From assembly GCA_964106915.2 (NCBI GenBank), contig OZ066922.1: a stretch of 64,000 nt of DNA. One strand, 5' to 3'. The notes under the pieces were generated by a model, which saw only the letters and a list, made by a program, of their open reading frames with translations, was not told the DNA's origin and ran no database searches. Numbering within the stretch: the first letter of the stretch is position 1; each line of letters begins with the position of its first letter. Positions 5,801-63,150 of this stretch are shown here, piece after piece. Position numbers and translations under genes: made by a program. The stretch is from Podarcis gaigeae. Lineage: Eukaryota.

Positions 5801-6207
5801 TCATAATCATAGTCACTTTATTTGCACATATACATTACACTCAAAGAGGTTCACAGCAAAGCATAATTTTAAAATAGAGCCAAATGAGGTTTGTATCTGG
5901 TGGTAACTTTGTCTCAGCAAAAAGGGTTTTCACTAATGCAAATCAGGGCATCTGATTTCCATTTATTCCCCCGCTACTTTTTAAGTCAGAACTATATCCC
6001 ATTCAATTCTGGAGAAACCCCACCCTTTGGAGCAGCTTTAAAATGGGGGATAGGAACTTTGGAGAGGTCAGTGAAAATCAAGTGATAGAACCATTTTCCA
6101 CAAAGGCATGATTGCTTTCAGCCCATGATGTACAACCCTGTCCTCCTGATACAGTAGAACTGATCCATTTTTCTCCTTAGGCTTCCTCAGAAAATCCAAG
6201 ACAACTA

Positions 6208-6414: not shown

Positions 6415-7590
6415 TAAATCTGTGGCCTGATGGGGACAAATATCCTTTCAAAGCTGTCTTCTCCATTTGGGCCAATACCATAGTAGATGACTATAGAAAA
6501 CTGTGGCTTTGATACATCATGGAAACATGAAAAAGTCCCCCATATTTCTGTCCCACTGGTTCCTTTTGCGACTGATGCATTGTGGATTGTGTGAAGGGCA
6601 CAATGCCATGGGCAGCTCTCAGCTAAAAGAGTAAAGAATTCATTTATCAATTCATTCTCTGAGATACCAGAAGCAGGGAAACAAACAAAGCTGACAACAA
6701 CTGAGATGGAGGTTCTGATTATCCGACTGCATGCATAAGAGAGGCTTGTAAGATTCCTGTCTAATATCTTGGCCAATCATTCATGATTATTCATTGTATG
6801 ATATGTCAGTTTTATCACATTAAGAAGATGATGATTACTTGGATCCAAGCAAGATGGCTCAAGACTACTTCTAAAAATACTCAGGGAAAAATGGCAAAAA
6901 ACAAACAAAAACATTTCAGTTCACCCCTGAACAGAGAAGACATATTTCTGCTCAGTTTCAGGGGAGTTGGAGGTTGAAAACAACATAAAACATTCTTGAT
7001 TTCTGGCTCACGAATCAGTCCTACAATTTAGAAACTAGGAAACCAAGGGAAACCAGGCACACACACACAAAATAATCTTTATCTACTTAGATTTACAGTT
7101 AAGAGTTGCCAGAGGCTCCACCAAAACTAACACATAGAAATTAGTAAGATTTTTTAGATTATTATAATTCAGTCCCTGGTAAAGAAAAAGTGTCTCAAAA
7201 GAGATGATCAAGATAACTGTATCAAGGTCCTTGATAGCACTGCACTCTTGATAGACCCAGTGCAGCACAAGTAGAGTGATGTCCCAACCCTAAGTAATAG
7301 ATGTGGAGCAATCTTGCAGGATGGAAGAAAGCAATGCTGCTGTTCACAGGATTTCAGCCTTAGTAAGTTATGTATCGTATACATTTTATGTTCATAACAG
7401 GGTCTCAGGCATTTCATAGTAACCCCCTAGTTTGGTGTCTCTAAGACAGTTAAGCTCTGGATATCAGCCTCTGGGAAAATCTGGTGTCCAAAATGGGCTT
7501 AATGTGTTATGTTTTTGTTCACATTGCTATGTGCAACTGTTATGTGCTAATAGTACAATATAATCAGTCCTAGACATCTTATGTATGATA

Positions 7591-7937
7591 GGTAAAAGGT
7601 AAAGGTACCCCTGCCCGTACGGGCCAGTCTTGACAGACTCTGGGGTTGTGCGCCCATCTCACTCAAGAGGCCAGGGGCCAGCGCTGTCCGGAGACACTTC
7701 CGGGTCACGTGGCCAGCGTGACAAAGCTGCATCTGGCGAGCCAGAGCCGCACACGGAAACGCCGTTTACCTTCCCGCTGGTAAGCGGTCCCTATTTATCT
7801 ACTTGCACCCGGAGGTGCTTTCGAACTGCTAGGTTGGCAGGCGCTGGGACCGAGCAGCGGGAGCGCACCCCGCTGCAGGGATTCGAACCGCCGACCTTTC
7901 GATTGGCTTTAACCCACAGCGCCACCTGCGTCCCCTT
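7591..7937 (-). mobile_element. Sauria (Squam1) SINE, near full length, young
   Basis: Minus strand shows a tRNA-like head with B box GGTTCGAATCC, core GCCAACCTAGCAGTTCGAAAGCA and an (ACCTTT)n tail. Perfect 12-bp TSD TTATGTATGATA at 7579-7590 and 7938-7949. Confidence 0.92.
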
Positions 7938-30448: not shown

Positions 30449-30796
30449 GGTGGCGCTGTGGGTTAAAGCCTCAGCGCCTAGGACTTGCCGATCAAAAGGT
30501 CGGCGGTTCGAATCCCTGCGGCGGGGTGCGCTCCCGCTGCTCGGTCCCAGCGCCTGCCAACCTAGCAGTTCGAAAGCACCCCCGGGTGCAAGTAGATAAA
30601 TAGGGACCGCTTACCAGCGGGAAGGTAAACGGCGTTTCCGTGTGCAGCTCTGGCTCGCCAGAGCAGCGATGTCACGCTGGCCACGTGACCCGGAAGTGTC
30701 TCCGGACAGCGCTGGCCCCTGGCCTCTTGAGTGAGATGGGCGCACAACCCCAGAGTCTGGCAAGACTGGCCCGTACGGGCAGGGGTACCTTTACCT
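30449..30796 (+). mobile_element. Sauria SINE, near full length, same subfamily as the 7591 copy
   Basis: A box TGGCGCTGTGG, B box GGTTCGAATCC (30505-30515), ACCTTT tail; almost the reverse complement of 7591-7937. Confidence 0.92.
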
Positions 30797-31121
30797 ATAC
30801 ATTTTTTTACCTTTTGTTTTAATTCCATCAATAGCTCAATTACTTTTTCACGATAACCTTTTATATGTTTTTAGCTCTGCCTGTTTAATTTGTATTTGTT
30901 TCCATTTTTGTGAGCCGCCTTGATTATGCGGGGGGGGGGGGGGAGGCGGGATATAAACAAAGAATAGCCAAAGAATGAGGTGAATAGTGCTCCAAGTTTG
31001 TGGTCCCCAGCTAGTGGCAATTCAGAGGTAGCTTAGGGCCATGATGCCTAGCAGCCAGTTGCACCTAGAGATGGAAAAACTTGAAGGACAAGTTTCGATA
31101 GGAGACCAAGGAAACACAGTA

Positions 31122-32456: not shown

Positions 32457-32603
32457 ATGCACTTGCTGGGATTCTTCTCTCTGGGTTGCTATCTGGCTGC
32501 TGGCGCGGTGGTGCTGCTGGGAGCTCGGGAGCCCGCGACGGCCGCTGCCTATGAATCCGGGCAGGGCTACTATGAAGAGGAGCCCGACGTGGGGGATGCC
32601 AAG
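32457..32603 (+). CDS. VEGFC: VEGFC coding exon 1 (signal peptide and start of N-propeptide)
   Basis: ATG at 32457 (A at -3) gives MHLLGFFSLGCYLAAGAVVLLGAREPATAAAYESGQGYYEEEPDVGDAK, the VEGF-C N-terminus (MHLLGFFS). 147 nt, followed by donor AAG|GTAAGC at 32604; lies in a CpG island. Confidence 0.97.
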
Positions 32604-35600
32604 GTAAGCAGGGGGGGTGGGGGGCGCAAGCCCTTCCCGGCCCGGCCGCAGACCGCCGGGACTTCGCTTCGCTCAGGCTCCCCGAGCGTCATGTGACCCG
32701 AGCGCTTGGTTGGTGCAGATGCAGCGCCCCTCGAGAAGTGCATGCATACCAGCCGCTCATAAAAGCAGGGAGCTCGAAACAGAGAGGAAAAGGTGCATTC
32801 CCACCTCCCTCCACCCCTCTTCCAATGCAAGGCGGGTGGGAAGCGGTATTTCTGTCCCACCATAGGTATTTTTAGGCTGGTCAGAAATTCTCCAGATTAA
32901 CATGCAATACACTGTGTGTTTATCACTTGTCTGGGATTGGTTGTTGCATTTAGGCGGAACGCTTAAGGATTCTATGAAAGTTTTGTCTTCTGAAGTTTTA
33001 GGCAGCCAATATGGCTATATGGGGGAATTATTGGTTTGTTTTTGTTGTTGCTTTTGTTTTCTTGTGTATTTTGTGTTCTCATTTTGTGTTTTTCTGTTGT
33101 GACTTGCCCTGGGATCTTCAGATGAAGGGCAGTATACAAATTTATTAAATAAATAAAACAATAATAATTGCTTCTGGGCTAAGGGTTTGGACACAATGAC
33201 TTCTGGTCATTCCTGTCTTTGCGGTGAGCTTATAAAGGTGATTCCTAGCATGCAGAATTAATTGGCCCCCGAGGATGTGGAGATCCGTAACCCTAGTTGT
33301 TTATCCTGTTATCTTTTGCTTGCACAGGGCTCTAAGTACTGTACAGACAGATAAGAACTCAGAGCACCATTGCTTCCCAGGGAAGTCATGTTAGTTTACA
33401 AACTAGTCACAGGGACAGGCTTGGTCTGGGGAATGCAGTATTAGTGCCTCCCTACTAGAAGTGGTTCACTGACTGTATGCATTCCTAGCTTCTTTATCAA
33501 GGGCAAAGCTGTGGAAAGCAAGGAGGTCTGTGTCCTTGGAGTGAAACGTGTGTGTTCTCGAAACTTTCCAGTATGATCTGACTAGCTGCTGGCTAAAATC
33601 TTTTAAAGCCTTTTGGAAGACTGGTGTGCATGGCAGTGTAACTGCAGCGTAAATCCACAAAGAGAAATAATTGCATTAGAATGTCTTCCTATTTTCTAAA
33701 GGTCTGTGGTGGTATTTATGAAAGTCATAATTTCTAAAGAGCAACGTGGTTTCAGGAAATTAACTTGACCTTTGACGGTCCTGCCTGGATAATTCTCGTT
33801 TGACAGCATTAACTTTAAACATAGGGCATACATAGTCTTTTCATGTTTGTAGAATACATGAATAACATCAGAAATATCAAACTCAGAGTTTTTATAGAAG
33901 ATATCAGTTACGGATACGTTGTCTACCTCTGTCTGCATTATGTGCATTGCAAGGATACCATGTTTTGCGAAGGAAACCTAAAACTGTTTATAAAAGAAAG
34001 TTTCTTTGCACATTGCATCTCCCTTTTAATGGGATATTTCCACAACAATCTGGACATTTCAGATTGGTGCTGACAGTTTTAAAATATAACAGCTGATCCC
34101 CACACACTGCAGGATAAATGCTGGCTTGCTGTGTGTCTCCCTCCACCCCCAATTTCTAATGTGTGAACACAGAACAAGTCCAATTGGTAATCACTTTAAT
34201 TTGATTAAAGCTAATATATGCCAAAACCGTAGCAAAACTGAGAGGCAGACATATTTCTCACTTGGTTTTACCTCATGCAAATCAGTTGACAAAGGCTGAA
34301 CTTGGTTGCTTGTTATTATGACGACTTTTAGTTTGCAAGTTATATTCAGTAATAATAGTTTCTACAGTGTATTGAGCATACACTCACAGGAAACAGTTTG
34401 GTGAAAGATGAATGGTGTGGAACAAAGTATGTGCTTTCTGTGTTTATTGCATCTTTGAAGTCTTAAACTTCCACCACAGTCTGCTCTGTGTTTTACTGAA
34501 GTATCATGACTCTGCGAGAAACCTGGGACAATAAAGCAAAGGAAGTGAAGAGTATGTGAGACTGGAAAGACAATGGACAGTGGATATCGAGGAGGTTATA
34601 TATTTTTGTTTTGGGGGTGAGCACCTGTGCTCCATGTGTGTGTGTATATAAAGGCATGTATGAGGAGGGGGAGGGAATTAAACACACATTCCAAGTTTTT
34701 ATAGGACATCCCCCCCCCTTACCATTGCTGTCCATGAGCATGAATGATGTCATTGACCTAAGTAGAACTGCTCAAGTAAGAACAATTGGAAGGATTTGGT
34801 CCCTGTTGATTCTGCATATTGGTCCCTGTGTGATGAGAGAATGCTAAAAGGAAATTCTTGAAGGAATTAAAATATGATTCGATAACTAAACTGTAGGTAA
34901 ACATTTCAAGGAAAGTACGATTGCGGACCCACACCCTGGTGGGTGAAAGGCAAGACCGACAACAGGTGTAAACAAGACTCCGCCCCCAACCTGCCCATGA
35001 TTGGGCAGTTTAATTCTGAGGGTGGCCGCCTCTCACACCATCCCTTGCAGCCGGCCAGGGTAATTCCCCAACGGCTAGCCACCATGTGAGAGCATTATGC
35101 CCCAGGGAGCTGTGGGTGATGGTGGTGGGCTGCAAATGCCGCCCACCCTGGGAGCAGGTGAGCAGCCATTATGGTGTCATTTTTTTCAGTTCAGATAAAA
35201 CGGAGTACTCTAGAGCCAAGTCTGATTGTTTGAAATTTGTGATTTCCTTAGCTTTTCCTCATTCAAGCCATTTTTTAGTTGAAATAGGACTGAAAATTTT
35301 GTTTCCATTTGTGTTAATAGATTCTATATTGTCTGTTAGGATTTAAAGTGGTTGTGTTGAGGAAGCTTCAAGTGGACAGCAGCTTTTTAAATACAAAGAT
35401 GGATGGGTATCATGGACCTGTTTTTCTAGGTGTTATGCCATAAACTTATGAAAATAGTATAACGTTGGTTGGTTTTTCTAACATTTCAAAGACATGTGGA
35501 AGAAAGGTAGCTCCATATGCATCAGAACAGTCATGTCTTCCTATTTAACCTCAAACTTTTGGAAACCTGAGGTAGCACAAGTAGTTCTTATGGGGCTATG

Positions 35601-36876: not shown

Positions 36877-37188
36877 ATTGTCCTGAGTCTTTATGGCTCA
36901 CTCTGCAGAGAAGGGGATCCATTGTTTGGATAGATGTGTACACATCAAAGGCTGAGAAAGATAACTGGACACATGGGTCAGCTGGGTGGCTATGCGAGTC
37001 CTGTGTGTTTGTACATACAAGAGTGTACATAATATGAGTGTGGGGTGGCTACATCCACACCACTGGCATGAGGACCATTGGCCAAGGGTGAATGTGGCCT
37101 TTGGGCCAAAAACTGTTAGCCACCCCTGGTTTAAAGAGATTATAAAACATATAATCAAACATGTCATTCAACTTGTAATTGTTATATT

Positions 37189-37345
37189 AAAAGGTAAAGG
37201 TAAAGGTACCCCTGCCTGTACAGGCCAGTCTTGCCAGACTCTGGGGTTGTGCGCCCATCTCACTCAAGAGGCCAGGGGCCAGCGCTGTCCGGAGACACTT
37301 CCAGGTCACGTGGCCAGCGTGACATCGCTGCTCTGGCGAGACCAG
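37189..37345 (-). mobile_element. Sauria SINE, 5'-truncated (3' half)
   Basis: (AAAGGT)n followed by ACCCCTGCCTGTACAGGCCAGTC...; near-identical to 7591-7745. Confidence 0.9.
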
Positions 37346-39842
37346 TGGGGCTATTTTTGACCTTGTCCTCTATGCATCTTGCATCTGTTTTTCTTTGGGT
37401 TGTTGTTAATTTTGTTTGGCTAATATTGCAGTCCAAGACACTTTCTGGGAAATTAGTCTTCTTGAACTCTGTGTGATTTATTTTTGAGTAAATATGCTCC
37501 ATATTTCCCATGTGTTTACTAACAGAGTACTCTTAACCTCCTGATCCCTGCTCCTGGGCAGAGTTGAGGTATGATGGAGGTGTCTTTCCACTGACCTCTA
37601 GTGGTGGTAGATTGGGCTCCAATATTACAGAGCTTCCTGGACTGGAGCTGACACAGCACATATACCAGCTTACCCTGCCTGGGGTAAGTGGCAAGGCTAA
37701 TAGTATGTCAACTGATCTGCTGCTCTGCTCTCTCCAGCCAGGGTTTAGGATATCTCTGCCTGTCTTAGGGTAAACTCTTGGGGGAGTGGTAGACCTGATG
37801 GCAGGGTATAAATTGATAGACACATAAATAAGTACCTACATTTATGATCATCTGGCCTTCAAAATACTAAAAACTTGGAGTTGGAAGGAGGGAACCATCA
37901 TCTGCTAGGAATATATATATTAGTTCACTTTTAAATTTATTATGTGTGAGTACACCTGTTCACAACTCAGTATGATGGGTTTCATATACAGAAAAAGAAA
38001 ACCTGGCCAAGTAGACGAGGCTTAAGACAAATACTACTCCTTTACAACTGATTTGCTTCACTGATTATCATGGAGGATGGAATTTAGAGTGCTCTGCAGT
38101 CTCTTTCTAGAAACTGCTCTATTAGCATGCCCGTGCATAGGCTTACACTTAAGGAAACTTGCTTGTCCATGAAGACACAGATACAAGCCTTGGACCCAAC
38201 CCCAGTGCAAAAACAACTGTGAGCAAAACAACATGTGAAAGTCACTGATAAGGTTGGAGCAGGACAAGCAATGTTCCTGTAGTATAGCATACCAAGCACT
38301 ATTTCAATAGTCCTGAAGCTTCTTCCTTGGTGCTCATATTTTGATGTTACTGTAGAGACAGACCATTCTATTAACACTTAAAAAAAAAAATCTTAATGTT
38401 TAATATAATCAGGTAGCTTTTGTTTTACACATCTTAATTTGCAGTAACGGAGTCACATGTGAGCAGGCCAAATCATATGTGATATAACCTGTTCCTTCCC
38501 TTGCTTTTTTCCACTTATTGTTATAAAGATTGAGAAGTGTTATTATTAGGCTGTTTCTTGGTGTAAAGTATAGAAAGTATAATCATTAATAAACTTGTGT
38601 GAGAAATAAAGGGCAGAGTAATCCTATGGAGGTCAGGGAGAGGCAGTTCCTAAACCTTTCTGGTCTTGCACTGGTCAAGGCAGAAGGTGAGGGTTGGCTT
38701 ATCTTCAGTGGAAGGGAAAATAACAAGCACCAGCTCCAGGGCCACTGCAGCTTTTCATCCCATGTTGGAGATGCCAGGGAAATGGGGTGGATTTAGATTC
38801 TGTGGATCCACCCTCAGCACTCCTCTTTTCATTGTCTTCTGCCATCAGAGCAACGATGGTGGAGTTTTCCACCACTGCAAGAAAGAGGCCCATGGCAGTG
38901 AAACTCCTCTGTCCAAGAACTCCATTTCTACCACTGGATGGTGAGGTTCGTAGCTTCAAGTGCACCCTCAGCCGTTCTGTCTGGGAGCTTAAAATAGCTG
39001 CCTTGATTAGGCTTGTTTCTGGCATGCTATACAGATAATCTATTTGTTATTTCTGTTAATCTTTGAAAATGCAAACATTGCTGAGCAGACAACCAGTGTG
39101 GAGGCTCCCAGTTTCAAATGCCAGCAAACTTCCATTAAAACATTATGGGGCAAGTTATACTCTTAGTTATTTTAAGTATATTCATTGATTCTGTTATAAT
39201 ACGATCCTTTGGAAGCCAAAACATTTGGGTCCTATGGCCAATGTGAGCAATTATATTATATTACTTTGCTTTGGAATGTTATGAGCATTTAGAAGAACTT
39301 CTGTTCAAATGCCTGCAACTATTTGCCCTGCTTATCCCTGATCCCTTCCCAAGGGCCCACTAACCGACTTAAATTAGTTTCCACCAAGGGCGTCTTGCAG
39401 GGGAGATGCATTTTGAGCAATTAGATGCAGTGTTTGCCAAATATCAACCCCGCTTTGGGGTGCATGTAAAGATGCTTATGCATTCATATTTCTTATTTAC
39501 ACCGTCAGTTTCAATATTCTGTTTTATTTTCTTTGGAATGTATAGGTCACCTAGTCCAACAAAGCCCTACACTAGGAATGTGGCACTCCAGGTCTTTCTG
39601 CCTGGTGCCTGGGACTCTGCTCAAGTCCCATCCACTCCCTAGTCTGCACCACTCACTAAATATAAAAATATCAGGCTACACTTATCAGAGCAGTTGCACA
39701 TTGCATTAGAGCCCAGGAAATGTGAACTTTTTTCTGTGTTGCCCAGTCCAGACCACACAGTACTTTTCTAAAATCTCATTAATTAATTGTTAACCACCAA
39801 GAATTCAGGCTCTGGAATCAGTTGCACGTTTACCTCTTCTCT

Positions 39843-40038
39843 TACAGATAGGTAGCCGTGTTGGTCTGCCATAGTCAAAACAAAAAAATTCCTTCCAGTA
39901 GCACCTTAAAGACCAACTTAAGTTAGTTCTTGTTATGAGCTTTCGTGTGTATCTGAAGAAGTGTGCATGCACACGAAAGCTCATACCAAGAACTAACTTA
40001 GTTGGTCTTTAAGGTGCTACTGGAAGGAATTTTTTTGT
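39843..40038. mobile_element. Penelope-like element remnant (inverted pLTR arrangement) carrying a minimal hammerhead ribozyme motif
   Basis: ~72-bp inverted arms (39877-39949 vs 39970-40041). GGTAGCCGTGTTGGTCTG / GCACCTTAAAGAC / CTGAAGAAG..CACGAAAGCTCAT motifs typical of reptile Penelope ends (from recall). 14-bp TSD with 1 mismatch: TTTACCTCTTCTCT 39829-39842 vs TTTACGTCTTCTCT 40039-40052. Confidence 0.75.
39949..39986 (+). ncRNA. Minimal type I hammerhead ribozyme motif
   Basis: Stem I GUAU(39949-52)/AUAC(39983-86); core CUGAAGA (39953-59); extra A; stem II GUGUG-CAUG-CACAC; GAAA (39975-78); palindromic AGCU in place of stem III; predicted cleavage after C39982. Confidence 0.6.
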
Positions 40039-42085
40039 TTTACGTCTTCTCTGTCATTCATGAACCCTTGTGAAACATCCATTATCAGTTTTTGGTTGCA
40101 ACACCCTAATTGTTCCTCTCACCAACTTATTCTTTATGATTATTATTTATTTACAGAGCATACCACTGTACATTGAAGTTACAGAATTAGAAAAGAGTTA
40201 GATAATTATATAACATGTGACAGGTTCCTGCCACAAAAGGGTTTACAACTTAGAATAAATCCTTTTGTATTTCCTATACAATAACTTACACAAACATGTA
40301 CACACACCAGGTTTTACCTAAAATAGCATTTCCAACTTACATCATTTCTAGGTTGCCATATCTTTATTAGCTTTCAGAAGTTTGGTACCTAGGGCTTTCC
40401 CTGTCATTATGCAAAAAACCTGCTGAAACAGTACTTCCTGACTCATACTCTTTTGCCACAGGAGTACCCCCTGGTGGCCATTCAAGACATAATGGCTGCA
40501 TTTGAGATGCATCTTAGAGCAGAATATGGTTTTGGGAAACACTATTACTAATTGTTACACCAGTGTTTCTTATAGTAGATGTATGCAGTGCAGATGTCGT
40601 ATATGTTTGCATCTTAAAACTCTCATCTACACATACCTGGGAACAGGATAGTGGACCAGATAGACTCTTGGTCTGATCCAGCACGGTGGTTCTTACATCC
40701 TTAAATCTAGCTGTTGGGAGGGTTTTTGTCATAAGCTTTCTTATGTACTATATTTGTGATTCCACCCCCCCCCCAAAAAAAGTATCCTGTAAAAAAGCAG
40801 GACACTGCTTAATAACTCCAGACACCTCTGTACACATTTCAGAATGAAATTCCCTCTTGTTTTTTGGCTAAATATTCAACAGATATTTTGGCTTTATCCT
40901 TGATTTGTGTCATAGTGTAACTTTTTTACTCGTTTCATCATTCTGGAATGTAGCAGTTACAAGAGAAGTTGCTGTTTTGGTTCCAGAGAAGGGGGAGGGC
41001 AGAGAGAGAGAGAGAGATCCAAAACTGTTTGGATAGTTAGTTTTATTGGATCAACTGTGTTGCTAGATTGCTAGGAACCTCTACTGCATTGCACTGTGTT
41101 TCTTTGTCCAAGAAGATATAGCACAGCACAGCACAGCACAATGCAGTGGTGGCTGCCAATTCTGGCTTTCTTTCCAACTGTTGGCCAAATGTGTGTGTAA
41201 CAGAAAGAGAGAGAGAGCTGCAAGCACAGCCATGATAGTGCTGTGCAGCGTTTATCTTGGAAGAAAGCACAGCAAAGTACTATGGTGGTTGCCAGTTTGG
41301 CTTGAAAGGGCAATGTTAGGCTCCCAAAATAGGTATCAGGTGCAGTGGGTCCAATGCAGTTAGCCGGTGGCAATTGGCTAAAGAAGGCGAAATAGTTCAG
41401 AACAATGAAGCTAATATGCCTTAGTAGCAAGGTTGTTCTGTAATATTTCACTTATGCCAGTGTGGATAGTTTGCTAATTGTTGAAATTCAAAGGTATCTC
41501 TGTGTTTACAACTGAAAACTATCATAACATAAAATGGTATCCTTATTAACACAATTTCCATGTGCTATATCATGTCAGCAGTTTTTAATACTGTAGGTAT
41601 TAAGTTAATTAATTAAATTAATTAAACTATTAATTAATATAGTAATTACTGTTACAGGGTTCTCTGTTTTGCTATCCCTGCCCCATGTTGTGTTGGATAT
41701 AGTGTAATGGGTAATGTGTGTTTTTTGCTGTTACAAGACTGCCTAACTTATAACCAACAAGTCAAACACAGCCCATTAGTTGCTGTAGTTGTTACAGAAA
41801 GCAACACAGTTGAACTTAATTTATGACTGAAGCCAATATTAAAGCTACTGTGTGATAATTTAGTCTCCCTCAATTTTTGGAATCATGTCCTCTTGTTCTG
41901 CAGCCACTTGTAATATGCATCATTGTTGTTGATGCACAGCTGCAAGGATGACTCCCTGAATAGATTAAGAAACAGAGCAAGGTATGAATCAGAAATGGAT
42001 GGTCAAGGGCATAAGAACCCCAACAGGAGTGCATACATCTTTTGTGTCATGATTGGGTTTGCTCAGGGAGGTGCAGTGTTTCTCT

Positions 42086-49769: not shown

Positions 49770-50152
49770 GGCCCATGGGTGGCACTGTGATCTAAACCAC
49801 TGAGATTTTTGGACTTGCTAATCAGAAGGTTGGTGGTTCAAATCCCTGTGACGGGGTGAGCTTCCATTGCTCTGTCCCAGCTTCTGCCAACCTAGCAGTT
49901 TGAAAGCACACCAGTGCAAGTAGATAAATAGGCACTGCTGCTGCAGGAAGGTAAATGGTGTTTACATGCGCTTTGACTTCTGTCGCGGTGTTCCATTGCA
50001 CCAGAAACGGTTTAGTCATGCTGGCCACACAACCCGGAAAGCTGTCTGTAGACAAACGCCGGCTCCCTTGGCCTGAAGCAAGATGAGCGCCGCAACCCCA
50101 TAGTTGCCTTTGACTGGAATTAACTGTCCAGGGGCCCTTTACCTTTAACCTT
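49770..50152 (+). mobile_element. Sauria SINE, older subfamily, full length
   Basis: Head GGTGGCACTGTG...GGTTCAAATCC, core GCCAACCTAGCAGTT, tail CCTTTACCTTT; many CpG-decay changes. Confidence 0.88.
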
Positions 50153-50605
50153 TTACAAAGGCAGTATGAAATTACAATCAAACACATTATTCATACAATT
50201 ACTCATACAATCTTACTATCCATCCCACACAACTACTACAGTCATTCACTACCTCAGATACTACCTATTCACACATAAACCATTCATACTCAACAGGATT
50301 ACAACCCACATACAAAGGATTGCTGCCAAGCATATAGATGCAAGTTTTTCTCCCCATCTGTAAAACACTAATGGGCTCATGCCCCATACCCACTGGGCCA
50401 TCTAATACTCCTCTCCTATCTCTTACTTGAGAGTGGCCCAGTTCTGTACCAGAGCAGTATTTCACCCTGGGGGGTATCAAACTACTTGTATCCATTCAGT
50501 TCCAGGTACATAAGCACAACATGGTACTGCACAACCATTTGCTTATTTAGCAGTGCAATGAGCGAATTGGCCTGCTCCATCTTATAGTCCATTGAATACC
50601 TGCCA

Positions 50606-54987: not shown

Positions 54988-55618
54988 TATTAAAAGTTAT
55001 AGAAAATGGAATAATGAAATTCAGAAAAGATCATTCACCTGCTTTTATTCCTTCCTCCCCTTGCTGCCTTTTTCACTGCATTGCCCCCCCCCCCCCTCTC
55101 TCTGGTTCTTAGTTAATTTTTAAATGTTTCTTTTCATCAGATTAAAGTGCACTGTTTTTATGCTAAATCATTGCCATAGTGGGACACAAAATCAATGTTT
55201 GAAGGCTCTATAAGTTTAGCTGGCATTGCCTGCCTTGTTTCTAAATAAGCATGCATAGAATTGCAGCCTAAGTGATATTGAATGAAGAATCTGTGTTTGT
55301 AGTTTATTCACGTTTGCCTAAAACTAGATTTGGTGTTAGTGTTCATTTGTAAGTGTCCCCAATAGCAGTTTGTTTGGACCAATAATGGCAATATTCGGGG
55401 CTAACAAAGTCAATATATTGTTTCCTCCTTGTACTTTCATAACAGCCTTAACAAAACTAAGAAGGTAGGAAGATAGTTAGACAGACTTAAATACATTTTT
55501 GATAATGAAGTCTCTATAGGGAAAGAGACTTCCTTACTTGCTGTTGATCATATTAATATATATATATATAAACATTTGTATAATGTGGAAAGTAATTATT
55601 TTTGCTCTTTTTTAGCAG

Positions 55619-55838
55619 ACTCATGGAAGTAAAGAGTTGGAAGAGCACTTGCGGTCTGTATCCAGTGTGGATGAACTCATGACAGTACTTTATCCAGAAT
55701 ACTGGAAAATGTTCAAATGTCAGTTGAGGAAAGGGAGCTGGCAACACAATAGGGAACAGTCCAGCTTCGACGCAAGATCAGAGGATTCAAATCCAGTAAA
55801 ATTTGCTGCGGCACATTACAATCCCGAGATCTTGAAAA
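55619..55838 (+). CDS. VEGFC: VEGFC coding exon 2 (N-propeptide and N-terminal processing region)
   Basis: Pyrimidine tract then TAGCAG| acceptor. Encodes THGSKELEEHLRSVSSVDELMTVLYPEYWKMFKCQLRKGSWQHNREQSSFDARSEDSNPVKFAAAHYNPEILK(S). Donor AAAA|GTAAGT at 55839; 220 nt, ends in phase 1. Confidence 0.97.
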
Positions 55839-56011
55839 GTAAGTGTTGAAAATTTAATGTCCACCAGATACTGTAAATCAGTTTTTTAAAATTTAAATGC
55901 TGAAAACAAAACTGCTAAAATGTTATGTTAAAGCATAATTTAGCATAGTCAGAACCTCAAACCCTCACTAATAACAAGAAATTCCATAACTGTTTGCAGC
56001 TTTTTGAGCTT

Positions 56012-60817: not shown

Positions 60818-61008
60818 GTATTGATAATGAGTGGAGAAAAACTCAATGCATGCCACGTGAGGTATGTGTAGATGTGGGGAAAGAGTATGGAGCAACAACA
60901 AACACCTTCTTTAAACCTCCATGTGTGTCCATCTACAGATGTGGAGGTTGCTGCAATAGTGAAGGGCTGCAGTGTATGAATATCAGCACAAGCTTCATCA
61001 GTAAAACG
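60818..61008 (+). CDS. VEGFC: VEGFC coding exon 3 (VEGF homology domain, cystine knot)
   Basis: Acceptor ttggcag|. Encodes (S)IDNEWRKTQCMPREVCVDVGKEYGATTNTFFKPPCVSIYRCGGCCNSEGLQCMNISTSFISKT, including the PDGF/VEGF signature PPCVxxxRCGGCC. Donor ACG|GTAGGT; 191 nt restores phase 0. Confidence 0.98.
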
Positions 61009-61496
61009 GTAGGTTGTTATCTAAGCCACATTCTGGGTTTGTTTTAAGCTCTCAGTGTCTGCATGTGATTGAAATATGCACTGAAATCTGCTTTAAAAGG
61101 AATACATTGTTCTGTTGTTTACGTTGTAAAATATAATATGAATGCATTTGTTGTAGAACTATAAGAATCCCAACATTCTGTCCCGATCTCCCAGCACTAT
61201 ATCATTATTTTGGGACCAAACGAGAGCCTAATTTTATTATTAGTTAATACTAACACACAAGCAATAAGTGGGGCCACACTGAGTAGCCCCTTCCTCTGGC
61301 TACCATGTGACCAAGCAAACACTTAAAGGAAAGGGAAAGCCTTCAAACATACATTTCTGTATGTTTTCATTTTGTGCACCGTTTCCCAGCATGGTCCCAC
61401 TTCCCCACATGTTAGTATTAATTGAGAGAAGAATGTCCAAATATGGCCAATAATGTGACATTATTAACATCATTCGCCTTGGACGGCTGGTTTTTT

Positions 61497-62530
61497 TTGT
61501 CACTAGGCAGTTAATTGCTGTTTTCTTTGGGACTCGGATAATGGTGGCTGCTTTCAAACATGATGGAATGCAAGCGGTTTGCAGAGAGATGTTAAAAATC
61601 TTCATCAACACCCTGCTAATTGATCGGCACAATCTTTTACTATTTCCAGCACCCCACCTGGGCTAGCAGCTTTGCTGGGATTCACCCCTCACAATGCAGC
61701 TTTCACTTGATGGTCATATAAAACAAGTGGCTGTGAATTTGTAGGCTGGCAAACAGGAGCCAAGATATCTGCTCTTTCTGCCTCATAGCGGGTGAAGTAG
61801 ATGTTCAGCTCCTCTGCCAACATATCATTGGCCATGACCATGTTCGTCATATTGCCTTTATAGTTGGTTAGGTGCTGCAATCCTTGCCACACTTGTTTCG
61901 TATTGTTCTCAGCTAAGCAGTTCTCAACCTTGAGTTTGTATTGTTGCTTTGCCACCTTGATGCCTTTCCTAAGCTTTATTCTTACCTCTCTAAATGTCTC
62001 TATGCTCCCTGCCTTAAAGGCAGTATCCCAGGCTTTCAGGAGTGACCTAACTTCAGCAGTCATCTAGGGTTTGCTGTTCCCAAAAACTCTAATGCTCCTT
62101 TCTGTCATTACATTGTTGGTGCACACTTAAATATAGGAAAGTACAGCATCTGTGTATCTGTGCAGATCTTGATGTTCAAACACACTCCAATCAGTACTTT
62201 CAAAACAGTCCTGGAGCTGACTAAGAGCCCCCTCTGGCCAGATTCTAACTGTTTTTATAGCTGGCTGAATTCTTTAAGGGGGATGTACTTCGGACATAAA
62301 AAGAGTGAGGAATGGTCAGATGAACCTAAGTGGGGGAGGGAGATTGCCCTGTATACCTGCTTCAGATTAGAGTATACTCGGTCCAAGATATTAATCTCTC
62401 TAATGGGTGATTTCTGTTCAAACTTAGGAAAAATTGTATTCAGACAAGCTTAATTAAAGTCCGCCACCACAACCAGGGCACCCTCTGGATGTATTTGCTG
62501 CTGCATGGAGATGACGTCATATAATTTAGT
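61497..62530 (-). mobile_element. Rex1/Babar-type LINE internal fragment (endonuclease end, linker, RT start), degenerate
   Basis: Minus-strand peptides: HPEGALVVVADFN; ILDRVYSNLKQVYRAISLPHLGSSDHSSLFL (APE SDH motif); IRVFGNSKP*MTAEVRSLLK...VWQGLQHLTNYK; IFNISLQTACIPSCLKAATIIRVPKKTAINCL. Confidence 0.85.
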
Positions 62531-62782
62531 TATGTTTGCTATTTGCAATAGGAAGAAAGCCATGTTAGTATGACCAAAAAATGGGACCCAGGGCAAAGAG
62601 GGACTTGCTTCGTTGTCAGTAGCTTCTACCGAGTACAATGGAATTAAGTACAACAATTGAAAAGGGATAAAACCTGTTTCCTTTGGAGCAAACATCAATT
62701 CAAGTTTTCCAGGGATTGACATTTGCTCCAATTGAGCTTTAAATGGTGGGTTTTCATGGGGAAGGCTCCAGAGCAAAAAAAG

Positions 62783-63150
62783 CATGTAGAGCGTGTTGCA
62801 GTAGTCCAAGCAGGAGATAACCAGGGCATGCACCACTCTGGCAAGACAGTCCATGTGCAGGTAGGGTCTCAGCCTGCATACCACATGGAGCTGGTAGACA
62901 GCTGCCCTGGACACAGAATTGACCTGGGCCTCCATGAACAGCTATGACACCCAGGCTGCGCACCTGGTCCTTCAGGGGCACAGTTACCCCATTCAGGACC
63001 AGGGAGTCCCCCATACCCACCCACCAACTGTCCCCAAAGAACAGTATTTCTGTCTTGTCAGGATTCAACCTCAATCTGTTAGCTGCCATCCATCCTCCAA
63101 CCACCTCCAGACATTCACTGCCTTCACTGGTTCCGATTTAAAAGAGAGAT
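62783..63150 (-). mobile_element. L2 LINE ORF2 fragment (RT C-terminal part)
   Basis: WMAANRLRLNPDKTEIL...VRSLGVI and RLRPYL...VVHALVISCLDYCN motifs in the minus-strand ORFs. Confidence 0.85.

Follow-up and report, generated by a model that had tools for sequence, protein, structure and literature searches.

The hammerhead motif in intron 1 of VEGFC very probably belongs to a young, promoterless stub of a Penelope-like element (PLE): two head-to-head pLTR copies, made when both ends of the target site primed reverse transcription (RT) on uncleaved RNA, with a hammerhead that, by prediction, stays silent whether or not the inverted arm is present. The mirror-image arm is likely a by-product of element insertion and not an evolved off-switch. 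The stretch analysed here, called the window, comprises 64 kb of Podarcis gaigeae DNA.

The insert in VEGFC intron 1 and its hammerhead motif

The insert consists of 196 bp in head-to-head layout and is flanked by a TSD of 14 bp with one mismatch (Table 1). Its placement in VEGFC intron 1, on the sense strand, was already part of the initial annotation and is borne out: among solved structures, the PDGF-domain exon downstream matches VEGF-C best (E 1e-30, versus 2e-22 for VEGF-D), and the insert is flanked by two further stretches which, by resemblance, we take to be coding exon 1 (32458..32604, plus strand) and exon 2 (within 55616-55846) of VEGFC. A Pfam search of exon 1 (32458-32604) returned no match. 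The window also has SINE-like repeat copies at 7584-7907, 30481-30805, 37185-37340 and 49811-50155, presumably of the Sauria SINE; one pair of these (30654-30805 and 37189-37340), with 97% complementarity, lies on either side of the VEGFC promoter and exon 1. The minus-strand frames 61689-62063 and 62450-63137 are presumably decayed LINE (L2/CR1-like) reverse transcriptase fragments.

Table 1. Coordinates of the insert, its hammerhead motif and the diagnostic exon of the host gene in the window. In element numbering, the A of TCAGT is +1 and the G of GUAU (stem I) is +4.
Feature	Position	Strand	Basis or remark
Left TSD (ancestral target)	39829..39842	+	14 bp; empty-site contigs from three other species
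PLE tail, inverted	39843..39876	-	34 bp; ORF start codon and first 10 codons (MADQHGYLSV), by translation
Inverted arm, tailed pLTR copy	39843..39949	-	spans about +131 to +25 of the element; truncated within stem II
Head-to-head junction overlap (microhomology)	39947..39949	.	3-bp GTG; read against the pLTR of L084
Direct arm, short pLTR copy	39947..40041	+	element positions +2 to about +96; no promoter, no tail
Minimal type I hammerhead motif	39949-39986	+	sequence reading, pattern match, folding; definition in PMC4209133 (excerpts)
Hammerhead stem I	39949-52/39983-86	+	GUAU/AUAC, 4 bp
Hammerhead core CUGAAGA	39953-59	+	followed by one bulged A
Hammerhead stem II	39961-65/39970-74	+	GUGUG/CACAC, 5 bp, CAUG loop
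Hammerhead GAAA	39975-78	+	followed by palindromic AGCU (GC-UC) replacing stem III
Predicted cleavage point of the motif	after C39982	+	
Right TSD	40039..40052	+	14 bp; C>G at 40044; first bases common with the T run of the element
VEGFC PDGF/VEGF-domain exon	60847..61011	+	PF00341 match; structure comparison

The arms (39877-39949 and 39970-40041) had been described as near-perfect reverse complements, and over their 72-73 bp a single substitution and one indel of 1 bp are indeed all that distinguishes them. The whole insert folds into a single hairpin of -128 kcal/mol (z = -20; 0 of 200 shuffles were equally good). A TSD-flanked insert of about 200 bp had been recognised before and stands; the part that was then left unexplained, 39843-39876, is the inverted tail of the element, and the peptide that it encodes also opens the long ORFs of four other loci (L081-L084). 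The inverted arm has no CUGANGA and carries one substitution in the 3' strand of stem I; the T at 39933 is specific to the window copy.

The motif reads GTAT-CTGAAGA-A-GTGTG(CATG)CACAC-GAAA-GC-TC/ATAC, which confirms the core, the 4-bp stem I, the 5-bp stem II and the palindromic AGCU noticed earlier. This anatomy also agrees with the definition of minimal type I hammerheads given in excerpts of PMC4209133, as it combines a CUGANGA/GAAA/NUH core with stems I and II and a palindromic 15.2-16.2. Like the metazoan PLE hammerheads described there, it has a 4-bp stem I, a bulged base before stem II, the pair G10.1-C11.1 and no stem III; stem II has 5 bp, in contrast to 7-8 bp in the Schistosoma examples, and, unlike the hammerheads of that report, the VEGFC copy stands alone and pairs with its own antisense arm. 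Minimal PLE hammerheads of turtle and snakes are mentioned in the same excerpts.

A loose hammerhead pattern has its single match in the whole window at this position, and CTGANGA is found on the plus strand of the insert only (no CUGANGA on the minus strand). An Rfam search of the insert gave 16 matches at E<=10, all to sub-threshold hairpin families and none to a hammerhead family, likely because the motif lacks stem III. Stem II and its loop (39961-39974) form a perfect 14-nt palindrome through which two transcripts could pair, and when two monomers were co-folded in silico, the minimum was an intermolecular duplex of this palindrome and not an AGCU helix.

Four of 14 sequencing runs, each covering about half or more of the stretch, were used to compare the locus. 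In all three other species among them (X4, X7, X10) the site is empty: one contig spans 39300-39834 and resumes directly at 40045, with exactly 210 bp absent (the 196 bp plus one TSD copy). In a second individual of the same species (X2), contigs enter the insert from both flanks. The insertion is thus young and lineage-specific, and with the orthologous site empty in 3/3 related species, it does not qualify as a conserved (domesticated) intronic hammerhead. It does provide a clean presence/absence marker between related species.

The parent family and the footprint of its insertion

Exact copies of the 34-nt hammerhead core number 11,151 genome-wide (0 for the reversed control); a 26-nt anchor downstream of it has 19,227. 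Tracing longer copies upstream led to an ORF, and a protein search of the genome gave 1,464 candidates, of which 150 were scored, with open frames of up to 966 aa. Eight of the longest copies were examined in sequence and four of these begin with MADQHGYLSV. The locus L084 is a 3010-bp pLTR-ORF-pLTR unit with the same hammerhead-bearing pLTR at both ends, and its 921-aa frame has matches above cut-off to RVT_1 (45.5 bits, E 1e-11) and GIY-YIG (26.5 bits, E 8e-6). A single ORF with RT and C-terminal GIY-YIG and a partial-tandem unit with hammerheads are the hallmarks of an EN+ PLE, and the insert itself adds the inverted 5'-truncated copy, the one-sided tail and the TSD against an empty site. 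The suspected Penelope origin is therefore well founded, in ORFs, in pLTR-ORF-pLTR units and in copy number.

The long frames carry CNKPRCQLC upstream, and CQQC between IVY and YIG. Such a CX4CX2C linker marks Neptune and Nematis elements (PMC8557442, excerpts) and, judged by these cysteines, the family would be a Neptune-type PLE, unlike PAc, the Poseidon element of Anolis carolinensis (PMC11167929). With PAc it shares the reptile host, the pLTR hammerhead, two RT starts that bracket the tail, and uncleaved RNA as main template; its ORF begins in the tail, some 60 nt downstream of the cleavage point, whereas that of PAc begins at stem II. Full-length open frames of 921-966 codons are present at the loci L081-L084 (contigs C29, C32, C17). 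Their proteins are 96-98% identical over the searched part, and the family may still be active.

Several loci have unusual structures. Six (L218, L222, L224-L227) join the end of an unrelated repeat (…GGTACCACTG or similar) directly to position +39 of the pLTR, which may reflect a chimeric family or a second mobile element that inserts there; this repeat end recurs in the window at 6206 and 31120. A second caged, sense-oriented stub with a complete hammerhead lies in an intron (L002/L003, C1:166871-167049) of a gene whose exons resemble those of ERLIN. At L014 (C1:1780216-1780383), two tandem hammerhead copies, the second mutated, have no inverted arm; to one side of them is a GC-rich region and to the other a 225-codon frame in the same orientation. 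In an attempt to name this neighbouring gene all Atlas scores were below 0.8, and we claim no uncaged sense-intronic example.

A typical PLE insertion has an inverted 5'-truncated copy at its 5' end and a tail of 30-40 bp at one end (PMC8557442, excerpts), and inverted layouts are exemplified in parts of PMC3846280 and PMC2377424. The VEGFC insert shares with these EN+ insertions the head-to-head arms, the tail at one end over the first ORF codons, the TSD and the pLTR hammerhead; it differs in having no ORF and only 196 bp. Its TSD of 14 bp compares with 8-10 bp in rotifer Pen2a/Pen2 examples (PMC3846280, in part). The non-LTR retrozymes of a preprint (bioRxiv 10.64898/2026.07.22.740005, in part) are likewise non-coding, with a type I hammerhead and an origin from a PLE pLTR. 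These are, however, tandem repeats of two or more units with at least two complete hammerheads, and the VEGFC insert has one complete hammerhead in inverted layout.

To see how regular this layout is in the family, we examined every one of the first 100 anchor matches on contig C1; the sample stems from the first 4-6 Mb of the contig, with some regions picked for paired or long copies, and fractions are approximate. A head-to-head partner within 1.4 kb was present for 63 arms: 57 are in tailed-plus-untailed and 6 in untailed-plus-untailed pairs, and none is in a doubly tailed pair. Clustered by insertion, 37 of 83 are head-to-head (23 of them shorter than 300 bp), and 32 of these 37 have exactly one tail, with none doubly tailed. 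Eight head-to-head insertions share the layout of the window, one complete hammerhead facing an arm that is cut inside the hammerhead. Junctions differ from copy to copy in the sample, indicating that the hairpin itself is not the mobile unit.

The PLE protein of Anolis cuts and extends both target strands in vitro; RT initiates internally, at two sites on either side of the tail, and hammerhead mutants insert normally (PMC11167929). The tailed-plus-untailed rule fits two primed ends that use two RT starts, and from the genomic structure we infer such twin priming for the VEGFC insert. The GIY-YIG nuclease would have cut the two target strands about 14 bp apart. From one end, RT would then have begun at the downstream start (about +131) and yielded the tailed arm; from the other, it would have used the upstream start (about +96). 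The short cDNA would have reached the 5' end of the RNA (+2 to +4), the tailed cDNA would have stopped at +25, and the two would have been joined via the 3-bp overlap.

Probable transcription start and RNA template

Where the short arms begin says something about the RNA that was copied. In the survey, 31 of the 100 arms start at 0 to +7, versus 1 at +36 to +40. Among 193 distinct copies that hold +8 to +20, 66 extend further upstream and the other 127 stop at a junction, which lies at +2 to +5 in 92 cases and exactly at +4 in 40. The pile-up lies about 30 nt below a TATA consensus, found at -30 in the pLTR, which also has an Inr-like motif and, at -84, a CCAAT. TATA and an Inr-like motif are also reported for the pLTR of Pen2a_Av from Adineta vaga (PMC3846280, in part), in contrast to the Penelope of D. 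virilis with its TATA-less internal promoter (34-bp repeat; excerpts of PMC2377424).

The base in front of +4 is a G in 27 of 40 copies, versus 7 of 52 at starts 0, +1, +2, +6, +7 and +8. The comparison omits starts +3 and +5, at which the reference itself has a G, as well as the 11 starts that lie below 0; its copies include loci selected for variation at +36 to +38, and its Fisher control is generous, T not being countable at +4. Leaving aside nine cases in which the inverted arm supplies the G, the count is 18 of 31 (binomial p 0.001 against 0.3). Excerpts of PMC11702581 describe an extra G as a sign of mRNA cap copying in full-length L1 insertions. Start pile-up and extra G together make it likely that transcription begins at stem I or immediately ahead of it and that short copies are run-off cDNAs; the sequence data suggest a capped, uncleaved RNA template whose start coincides with the ribozyme. 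The sense arm in the window starts at +2, through the 3-bp overlap, and has no extra G.

The rarity of copies that start at the cleavage site indicates a template of mostly uncleaved RNA, as in vitro. Genome-wide, the number of copies drops by 3.4% over +41 to +38 (16,113 to 15,558) and by 6.3% over +37 to +34 (to 14,576), with estimated junctions of 122 (47-236) at +38, 71 (46-95) at +39 and 49 (33-63) at +37. There is no clear peak of cleavage-site junctions genome-wide, and they account for at most about 1.5% of copies. We had considered an apparent excess as cleavage-site run-off, but it mostly reflects a C17>U variant: 611 copies lack the C at +37, 24 of the first 30 of these continue upstream, and 18 of the same 30 belong, with a T, to a subfamily with AACAAAC downstream. 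This AACAAAC subfamily (L172-L198) often has U for C at the cleavage position, which still gives a NUH triplet.

The 5' pile-up is unlikely to stem from a 3' splice site (TTTCAG|TG), as the sequences upstream of the junctions are all different, although such a site may exist in the full element. Among the runs listed as covering the VEGFC locus there was no RNA run. Contigs from four possible RNA runs of another species cover the pLTR of L084 with no splice-like joint; such contigs are blind to ends, strand and editing and give no evidence either way. A literature search, incomplete in coverage, found no paper that places a PLE hammerhead at a cap or transcription start site, and none on lacertid Penelope elements or PLE hairpins.

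Caging, predicted activity and the role of the inverted arm

The initial annotation held that ribozyme fold and hairpin exclude each other, and folding predictions support this. The full insert reaches -128.0 kcal/mol when free and -103.2 kcal/mol with the hammerhead enforced, a cost of 24.8 kcal/mol, and the cost is already 18.7 kcal/mol once the last hammerhead base has been transcribed. Stem II is transient: it has a probability of 0.95 at prefix 39975 and is then invaded by the inverted arm. In VEGFC pre-mRNA, the 72-bp duplex is accordingly predicted to beat the ribozyme fold by about 25 kcal/mol. With the right arm alone, the probability of stem I in the folding model is about 0.007.

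How common such caging is can be read from 100 listed core matches: 84 lie in examined DNA, and 75 of these have a stem I that is complete or nearly so (start at +5 or earlier). Among the 75, 44 have an arm that covers the core, a number that may be high as part of the DNA past 4 Mb had been selected for its paired or long copies; 3 have an arm that stops before covering the core and 28 none within 1.4 kb. The arm had been proposed as a built-in off-switch that explains tolerance of the ribozyme in an intron. This part of the annotation is not supported, as the arm is the textbook structure of a PLE insertion (37/83) and 28 of 75 complete copies have no arm within 1.4 kb. That the antisense arm is made first is mere geometry, given its upstream position in every head-to-head pair.

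The motif may need no cage at all. Single minimal hammerheads did not cleave and dimers did little in PMC4209133 (excerpts), and the Anolis PLE hammerhead made no cut without PLE protein (PMC11167929). The sense arm at VEGFC lacks the tail region. For a lone motif with neither a stem III partner nor a tail region the cage likely makes little difference, and the insert is likely to be near neutral; on this analysis, which includes modelled folds, the cage at VEGFC is probably redundant and the hammerhead predicted to be silent.

A different view would make caging a selective filter: uncaged sense hammerheads would cut pre-mRNA via trans-dimers or PLE protein and be purged, and sense-intronic survivors would mainly be arm-blocked. 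The strong cage in silico (18.7 kcal/mol at the last hammerhead base), the 44 of 75 caged complete copies and the intact core in thousands of copies are all compatible with it, as is the depletion of retrozyme-type sequences in Xenopus introns (preprint, in part), and some selection against genic copies is plausible. Yet the insertion mechanism alone accounts for the arm, 28 of 75 complete copies do without one within 1.4 kb, monomers are inactive in vitro (PMC11167929 and excerpts of PMC4209133) and stem I is unstable in folding even without the arm, and we consider the filter quite unlikely. A host role for the hairpin, as miRNA/siRNA precursor or ADAR substrate, or its movement as a MITE-like unit, appears very unlikely: the duplex in pre-mRNA is indeed 72 bp long and near-perfect, but the 56 bits that the mir-559 model scores on both strands fall short of its 95-bit cut-off and are explained by generic pairing, three related species lack the insert, and sampled copies have unique junctions where a MITE-like unit would present many identical hairpins.

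The remaining alternative changes only the origin of the inversion: fold-back self-priming, with an antisense template, would take the place of priming from two target ends. It has been proposed for the same layout (PMC3846280, in part), and palindromes (the 14-nt stem II palindrome, AGCT) lie near many junctions, at which microhomology is frequent. Fold-back would, however, copy the same 3' end, yet tailed arms pair with untailed ones (32/37; none doubly tailed). The extra G before +4 further points to a sense, capped template, and both-strand extension has been demonstrated in vitro (PMC11167929), so that self-priming is unlikely. We retain two primed target ends and uncleaved RNA as the likely origin of the VEGFC insert.

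The VEGFC locus itself is ordinary: one of thousands of stubs, young and probably neutral. The family, by contrast, is a dense genomic record of PLE insertion, and its copies support the in vitro findings from Anolis: two RT starts, priming of both strands and an uncleaved template. They also suggest where transcription begins, a prediction that can be tested. What PLE hammerheads are for is called an open question in PMC11167929 and in excerpts of PMC4209133, and we tentatively put forward one answer, which we regard as possible but doubtful: the transcription start of this Neptune element may be the first base of stem I, the ribozyme the capped 5' leader of its mRNA, and the whole a protein-triggered self-decapping switch that ends translation. 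If so, cleavage would not be a step that makes the RT template, but would strip off the cap together with 34 nt ahead of the ORF, and roughly six in ten of the dispersed ribozyme copies would be silenced incidentally by inverted arms.
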